Virus record (IMG/VR): IMGVR_UViG_3300042934_001067
Span: 64,001 to 128,000 of that record
DNA: 64,000 nucleotides
Reading direction: 5' to 3' (one strand)
DNA from: a virus
Both the position numbers and the translations under genes were made by a program. Shown here piece after piece: positions 34,980 to 35,393 of this stretch (its first letter is position 1; the number at the start of each line of letters is the position of its first letter). The notes below the pieces were generated by a model. The model saw nothing but the letters and a program-made list of their open reading frames with translations, made no database searches and was not told the origin of the DNA.

Positions 34980-35010
34980 GAAGGGCCCCGCTCAACCTAC
35001 GGGGCCCTTC
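34980..35010. terminator. Hairpin at distal end of the CRISPR-like array
   Basis: GAAGGGCCCCG...CGGGGCCCTTC. Confidence 0.7.
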
Positions 35011-35311
35011 ACCTCCGCAAGTGCGGAGCAATCTTGCTGACCACATGGCTTGCGCCGTTGCGATCCACCTCCGCCGGAGCGGAGCCACACCCCGCCAGTG
35101 CGGGGACTACTCGGAATACCAAGCCGAGCCACCCCCGCGTCGGCGGGGAAGAGTCTCAGAGCGCGTCATCACCGTGCTCTTCAACCGGTACACCCCCGCA
35201 GATGCGGGGAGCAACGCACCTCTGCCCTTAACGAGGGCCATCCCCGCAGGTGCGGAGAGCAGTTGTGCACGCCCCTGAGGCCGGGGCCATCCCCGCTGTC
35301 GCGGGGAGCAC
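35005..35311 (-). CRISPR. Orphan degenerate type I-E-like mini-array, 7 repeat units
   Basis: 29-nt units at 35283, 35234, 35186, 35125, 35082, 35061 and 35005; best copy GTGCTCCCCGCGACAGCGGGGATGGCCCC; gaps 20, 19, 32, 14, overlap, 27 nt. Confidence 0.8.
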
Positions 35312-35393
35312 GTCTACGAAGTTAGCAGAATCTCGCGCCGCCAGAAGGCGTTCCGCGAGATGATGGAAACTCACATCCCGCCAGGAGGAACCG

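Follow-up and report, generated by a model that had tools for sequence, protein, structure and literature searches.

The 64,000-nt window analysed here (positions 64,001 to 128,000 of IMG/VR record IMGVR_UViG_3300042934_001067) belongs to a 156-kb record identifiable as a phage from its terminase, DnaE-type polymerase, ParB and RecA-like genes. It contains seven 29-nt repeat units on the minus strand (Table 1), separated by gaps of 20, 19, 32, 14, -8 and 27 nt. All seven retain the type I-E stem CYCCGC-N4-GCGGRG, starting at window positions 35013, 35069, 35090, 35133, 35194, 35242 and 35291. Both the stems and the gaps had been reported in a first-pass annotation made from the letters of the window, and both were recovered exactly. 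The seven stems are the sole matches to the motif across the 156,276-nt record, whereas approximate dinucleotide shuffles of the entire record yield 0.77 on average and never more than 3. The units are identical to Streptomyces I-E repeats at 21-26 of 29 positions, with the stems intact; the highest value is that of R1 (26/29 to a Streptomyces I-E array repeat), and R4 finds its nearest match in the array repeat of those hosts whose clade bears the S3 module described below. The array transcript folds with a z-score of -5.7 relative to shuffles, and an Rfam search of the array returned chance hairpin matches only. The absence of a cas operon, noted earlier for the window, extends to the entire 156-kb record, in which neither a complete cas locus nor any of Cas7e, Cas6e, Cas8e, Cas1 and Cas3-HD was found.

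Table 1. Coordinates of the array, of neighbouring features in the window, and of the host ORFs discussed with S1 and S3
Feature	Position	Strand	Remarks
Extended -10 promoter (putative), TG-N-TAACTT	35319..35327	-	7 nt ahead of repeat 1; TAACTT at 35324-35319
Repeat R1, CCCCGC-type I-E stem	35283..35311	-	supplies 5' handle of guide S1
Spacer S1, 20 nt	35263..35282	-	host CreA-like guide mimic
Repeat R2	35234..35262	-	25/29 to host repeat
Spacer S2, 19 nt	35215..35233	-	host CreR mimic
Repeat R3	35186..35214	-	24/29 to host repeat
Spacer S3, 32 nt	35154..35185	-	mimic of 32-nt host CreA-like guide
Repeat R4, CGAC loop	35125..35153	-	25/29 to array repeat of locus L338
Spacer S4, 14 nt	35111..35124	-	mimic of 14-nt host CreR
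Back-to-back hairpins R5 (CCCCGC type) and R6 (CTCCGC type)	35061..35110	-	R5 closes S4, R6 opens S6
Spacer S6, 27 nt	35034..35060	-	sits between two CTCCGC-type repeats
Repeat R7, CTCCGC type	35005..35033	-	3' end enters terminator arm
Terminator-like hairpin	34980..35010	-	arms 34980-34990 and 35000-35010
JmjC-domain gene	31612-32532	+	
26-nt inverted repeat (96%)	33821-33846 / 33934-33959		upstream of integrase-like ORF
Integrase-like ORF	33997-34848		weak XerC match
38-aa single-helix ORF	34862-34978	+	converges on array terminator (putative)
113-aa ORF	35394-35735	+	divergent from array promoter (putative)
Perfect 19-bp hairpin	35749-35793		follows 113-aa ORF
337-aa membrane protein	35798-36811	-	behind HTH_3 regulator
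HTH_3 regulator	36808-37086	-	
ParB/RNA-ligase-like fusion	40474-42417	-	
Cas4-like phage exonuclease	53351-54295	-	not belonging to a CRISPR locus
~70-aa two-helix ORF (host)	L292:7506-7718; L295:7519-7725; L408:5001-5216; L441	-; -; +; 	own mini-array
~54-aa two-helix ORF (host)	L415:4912-5076; L533-L537	-; 	32-nt host guide

The orientation of the array can be read from R2, in which a pair of the stem would be U-G in a minus-strand transcript but C-A in one from the plus strand; the former is, therefore, favoured, in agreement with the orientation of the I-E handle. The TAACTT hexamer and the far-end hairpin both lie where they had been described. Read by eye, the hexamer carries a TG one base upstream, which gives the extended -10 form; this region is unchanged in the relative described next, and a TANNNT box is found just upstream of many related arrays. 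A strict sigma-70 scan detected no complete -35/-10 pair and no U-tailed terminator at the array, and both the promoter and the terminator are considered putative, on the basis of eye reading and conservation. Short contigs covering the array are present in two soil RNA assemblies, being nearly identical to it in one case and MH60-like in the other; they give a weak hint of array transcription, as strand, ends and DNA carry-over are indistinguishable in them; the lack of coverage of the flanking genes in these runs is uninformative.

The first-pass annotation had argued against simple decay and had looked to conservation in related phages. Both points are borne out by a 157-kb relative, which forms one contig of Streptomyces sp. 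MH60 and has the identical seven-unit layout with the same promoter box; its terminator-like hairpin retains the arms, the loop being replaced. In two other relatives, the neighbouring integrase-like gene is present and the array is absent, which therefore makes the array an accessory insert. The MH60 genome yielded no Cas8e match, which suggests that the array serves as a broad-range kit and not as a response to a single resident system.

Several features flank the array. The 38-aa ORF is kept in MH60, and it also adjoins a different I-E mini-array in L156. The inverted repeat upstream of the integrase-like ORF is retained in the relatives L006 and L007 and is possibly a recombination or binding site. 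The 113-aa ORF, which adjoins the array in MH60 only, was considered as an acr neighbour; it belongs to no Pfam or NCBIfam family, its sole lead being a DUF6303-like match below 0.9, and no acr gene linked to the array was identified. A 31%-identical relative of the 337-aa membrane protein lies near a host I-E locus (L369).

Pattern scans recovered about 50 similar cas-less arrays of 2-8 units, mostly from phages and plasmids of actinobacteria, with Cumberbatch, Samy and the MBT27 plasmid among them, and mostly with a -10 box before and a hairpin after them. The larger ones (L022:4718-5086, L026:11232-11612, L002:4005-4292 and L004:2510-2802, with 8, 7, 6 and 6 units, respectively) include the cultured phage Cumberbatch and the MBT27 plasmid, in which no feature is annotated at those positions. 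A further array (L025:521-681) has three identical 20-nt spacers between identical repeats, the outcome of a recent tandem amplification of one guide.

Spacer lengths in the related arrays cluster at 14, 20-21 and 32-33 nt, with zero at 16-17 nt, in a histogram that the search patterns skew to 24 nt or less, so that only the gaps within 14-24 nt are informative. These clusters follow the 6-nt step of the Cas7 backbone. The spacer families of the window are common to unrelated elements and vary mainly at positions 6 and 12 and distally. As positions 6 and 12 are flipped out and unpaired in the established I-E structure, the spacers, thus, behave as guides.

The closest host counterparts of S2 and S4 lie at cas8e. 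The S2 target lies in the cas8e leader and consists of an AAC PAM followed by CGTTA-N-GAGCA; a TAGCGT-type -10 box precedes it by about 20 nt. It is matched in 34 of 163 Streptomyces I-E loci (shuffled spacers: mean 0.025, maximum 1), a count inflated by sampling, as a single Cas8e query contributed 63 of the 163 loci and the two locus sets share part of their members. Of the 34 loci, 28 have a mini-array of their own with the S2 seed, i.e., the host CreR, and S2 is identical to the host guide at 14/19 positions, with the match in the seed. For S4, the target is an AAG PAM followed by GCTTG-N-CATT, about 130 nt upstream of cas8e. It has one exact host (L315) and two sister hosts (L310 and L316) with sister guide/target pairs, and its handle-plus-seed pattern occurs in 2/401 Streptomyces genomes, namely in the MH60 array and in the L315 host locus. 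S4 pairs with its target over positions 1-10 with one wobble, and its identity to the host guide (7/14) is weaker than that of S1, S2 and S3. A scan of the 401 genomes for the PAM plus seed of S4 gave 31 matches, below the reversed control and with zero adjoining cas genes; it missed the host site because the host target has a C at position 7. A G/U-type wobble in the seed is needed by each of S1, S2 and S4 of the window. PAM-flanked hits in cas promoters, which had been proposed as a check on the array, are, thus, provided by S2 and S4.

Many host I-E loci (L318-L350) have single-spacer mini-arrays just upstream of cas8e, which open with a CTCCGC-type repeat and end with a CCCCGC-type one; examples are L328, L329, L336, L342 and L350, where the mini-array is on the minus strand and 60-165 nt separate it from cas8e. 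The phage spacer family TGTGG-N-GACTG (L023, L176 and L183) matches host mini-arrays and the cas8e leader in a further I-E clade (L185, L186 and L188), and spacers of L163 and L058 match the CreR family of L310/L316.

S1 and S3 lead to a different type of site, located between cas3 and cas8e. The S1 target is an AAC PAM plus the leader and RBS of a ~70-aa two-helix ORF, an antisense insert between the two cas genes that is followed by the host mini-array; cas3 is co-oriented with cas8e in this module. S1 is identical to the host guide in L295 at 16/20 positions, with the match in the seed, and pairs with its target throughout positions 1-15, the flipped positions 6 and 12 apart; two of these pairs are G/U-type wobbles. 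Its spacer family is present in 10 other element loci. All four strong matches to the ~70-aa ORF in the 401 genomes lie between cas3 and cas8e, together with the target and the host mini-array, and the guide and the target of S1 type have changed together in L441. In an unbiased scan, S1 alone gave 1 locus, a number reached by 22/200 shuffles, so that it did not beat the shuffles and its support comes from the host guide and the module.

The S3 target, an AAG PAM followed by GT[T/C]GA-N-GACCA, lies in the leader of a ~54-aa two-helix ORF, which is placed between cas3 and cas8e in the same layout as the S1 module and is accompanied by a 32-nt host guide. This ORF occurs in 5/401 genomes, always adjoining cas3 and/or cas8e; both the S3-type target and the host guide were observed in 4 loci, L415 among them. 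In L535/L338, the ORF appears to be frameshifted. S3 and the host guide are identical at 17/32 positions, with the match in the seed, and S3 differs from its counterpart in the MH60 relative at one position (position 6) in the first 16 nt and at seven in the last 16. The host guide mismatches its own target at position 9 in all four loci showing both, and S3 keeps this mismatch, which indicates that it was copied from the guide and not from the target. This shared mismatch, along with R4 being nearest to the repeat of that clade, points to a capture of the S3 unit from a host mini-array. Neither the ~70-aa nor the ~54-aa ORF belongs to a Pfam or NCBIfam family. By analogy, they are most likely back-up toxins firing on loss of Cascade; the S1 and S3 sites could instead, or also, regulate the divergent cas8e promoter, a type of control exerted by CreA in Haloarcula.

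The last part of the array combines two repeat types. The -8 gap corresponds to two hairpins placed back to back. Across arrays, the stem type switches between CCCCGC and CTCCGC at 7/10 overlap junctions vs. 3/136 ordinary spacer junctions, and both types are genuine Streptomyces I-E repeats. The simplest reading would be that each guide needs both of its flanking hairpins to fit the same Cas6e, and that two cassettes have been joined end to end. The S6 handle and seed are common to L019, L022 and MH60. No host guide for S6 was found in 13 CTCCGC-type loci, plasmids or metagenomes, and no target was found. An AAG-AAACG-GCAA site in three CTCCGC-type array leaders fits the sister spacer of L022 for 8 nt; it fits S6 of the window poorly and was not retained as its target, remaining a mere lead. 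Probably, S6 either provides a fifth guide, directed at a CTCCGC-type I-E system outside the sample, or acts as a plain decoy.

Taken as a whole, the array is best interpreted as a multiplexed Cracr array, a reading to which we assign a probability of about 85%. Weighing against it are the lack of a Cas8e match in MH60, the single exact host and short pairing of S4, the seed wobbles of S1, S2 and S4, and the failure to find a target for S6. The phage would transcribe one ~330-nt RNA off the minus strand, and host Cas6e would cut every stem, as suggested by the identity of the stems to host repeats and by the known I-E pathway. Cleavage would yield five crRNA-like guides to be loaded into host Cascade; shortened crRNAs assemble into smaller Cascades (PMC5159557). 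Pairing of each guide is predicted to extend over no more than the 10-15 nt nearest the PAM, with positions 6 and 12 left out, and because of this short pairing Cascade would bind without licensing Cas3 cutting and would block transcription. S2 and S4, as CreR copies, would tighten the autorepression of cas8e in two Streptomyces I-E clades, and S1 and S3, as CreA-like copies, would keep the two small membrane-protein genes shut, the toxicity of which is presumed from the layout of their modules. All five guides would also compete with immune crRNAs for Cas proteins. The differences between the repeats would reflect the separate host loci from which the individual units were taken up, and not decay. 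Besides the absence of decay, two proposals of the first-pass annotation gain support here: the orphan, self-contained unit borrowing host Cascade, and repression by short guides without cutting. Of the findings named there as refuting, a lack of conservation in relatives and a cas locus elsewhere on the element did not materialize, and the RNA-library contigs speak weakly against a lack of transcription.

Captured guides might also act purely as decoys, by titrating Cas6e and Cas7 without any promoter binding, as in a multiple Racr. Cracrs too work partly through competition, some seeds contain wobbles or a mismatch, no target was found for S6, and the overlapping hairpins could serve as extra Cas6e sinks. 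Nevertheless, unrelated elements preserve the seeds at the pairing positions while positions 6 and 12 vary freely, and S3 is conserved in its first half only, neither of which a decoy would need; moreover, Racrs are defined as solitary repeats. This explanation is, thus, unlikely, and the Racr-like decoy raised in the earlier annotation is at most part of the story, since seeds are conserved and match promoters.

The same annotation had taken the 32-nt spacer for a coding-derived guide against a competitor. More generally, the 32-nt (and 27-nt) spacers would then direct host Cascade-Cas3 against rival phages or plasmids, for which the canonical length of S3 and the known viral mini-arrays aimed at other viruses (PMC10120712) could be invoked. 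This proved very improbable. S3 has no PAM-flanked long match in phage, plasmid and IMG/VR collections, its best viral matches (21-23/32) being devoid of an AA-PAM; the best matches of S6 reach 20/27, mostly in low-GC viruses, and BLAST matches are at chance level. Since S3 copies a host regulatory guide of equal length, the idea is largely refuted for this spacer. Near-identical repeats, spacers of ~32 nt throughout and near-full protospacers elsewhere, as characterize a canonical or anti-competitor array, were not observed. Regulation by the phage of its own genes via host Cascade, sensing the CRISPR status of the host, appears hardly credible: the divergent gene adjoins the array promoter and the logic of crlRNA circuits is known, but no spacer has a PAM-flanked seed match of more than 10 nt in the 156-kb record. 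A decayed remnant of a canonical array, or a set of palindromic DNA operators, would account for repeats only 21-26/29 identical to those of hosts, but is of negligible probability and counted as already refuted, given the layout exactly conserved in the MH60 relative, the element without detectable cas genes, the quantised spacer lengths, the host guide counterparts and the strand-specific U-G pair.

Returning to the multiplexed Cracr array, a broader and more tentative proposal, to which we give slightly less than even chances, is that two or more small membrane toxins of CrePA-like type, repressed by Cascade and so far undescribed, are encoded in Streptomyces I-E systems, and that modular cassettes built by actinophages, with up to seven guides, silence the cas operon and its guards across several I-E clades, switching the Cas6e repeat type via back-to-back hairpins. 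Two membrane proteins of Streptomyces I-E loci emerged as candidate CRISPR-guarding toxins when the phage guides were traced back to their targets, and the extra value of the array lies in these two candidates. If the proposal holds true, phage arrays could serve to list host regulatory targets that are otherwise hidden; S6 would then indicate one more, to which the array leader of CTCCGC-type systems is a weak lead. Multiplexed silencing in Streptomyces by its endogenous Cascade may also be modelled on the natural 14- and 20-nt repression guides.

Several known systems resemble the array in part. Racr, the solitary repeat RNA anti-CRISPR (PMC10651486), shares with it phage repeat mimicry and a likely competition for Cas6/Cas7, and I-E examples exist; the present array, in contrast, has seven repeats and four spacers with conserved target-matching seeds. 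In 2023, Shmakov et al. (PMC10120712) described host mini-arrays copied by viruses, with cas8 promoters as the predicted targets of repression. These copies also tolerate a position-6 mismatch, but are single-spacer cases of types I-B and I-F1. CrePA is a CreA-repressed protein toxin in the I-F cas3-csy1 gap (bioRxiv 10.1101/2024.01.05.574328). The S1 and S3 host modules show the CreTA/CrePA layout, with a small ORF and a mini-array between cas3 and the first effector gene and a guide matching the promoter or leader of the ORF, the toxin role of the products being putative. They differ from CrePA in belonging to type I-E and to Streptomyces, and in encoding two-helix membrane proteins of 54-70 aa that are not KilAC. 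No description of Streptomyces I-E CrePA-like modules was found in the literature searched, the coverage of which was incomplete.

The closest relatives are the Cracr arrays, a phage-borne RNA counter-defence class defined by Liu et al. (bioRxiv 10.1101/2024.10.29.618823). In the accessible part of that preprint, 30 arrays of two or three spacers are listed, some of which may be larger; a two-spacer I-E array of Salmonella is processed and silences casA in a spacer-dependent manner; and I-E is tied to CreR, and CreTA to I-F. As in the Cracrs outlined there, the array is phage-borne and cas-less, lies on a mobile element outside a CRISPR-cas locus, and has degenerate, host-type repeats flanking short spacers that copy host CreR/CreA guides. 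A host CreR or CreA match over at least nine PAM-proximal bases, the extent also described for the PAM-flanked promoter matches of the accessible Cracr text, is found for S1, S2 and S3, is weaker for S4 and is absent for S6; PAM-flanked cas or toxin promoter matches are found for S1, S2, S3 and S4, and none for S6. Also in line with that text, several guides are combined in one unit and aimed at variants of one CRISPR type, the four targets lying in different I-E clades or modules. Streptomyces is unnamed in the Cracr main text, and an overlap with its Table S2 is possible. While the class itself is already known, what appears new, relative to the accessible part of the preprint, is the form: five spacers and seven repeats, where the arrays reported have three spacers or fewer, a combination of CreR- and CreA-type mimics in one I-E array, two stem types joined via back-to-back hairpins, and one full-length 32-nt guide. 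Cracr-type counter-defence would, thus, extend to Streptomyces in a form more elaborate than published, a single I-E array addressing both defence layers.
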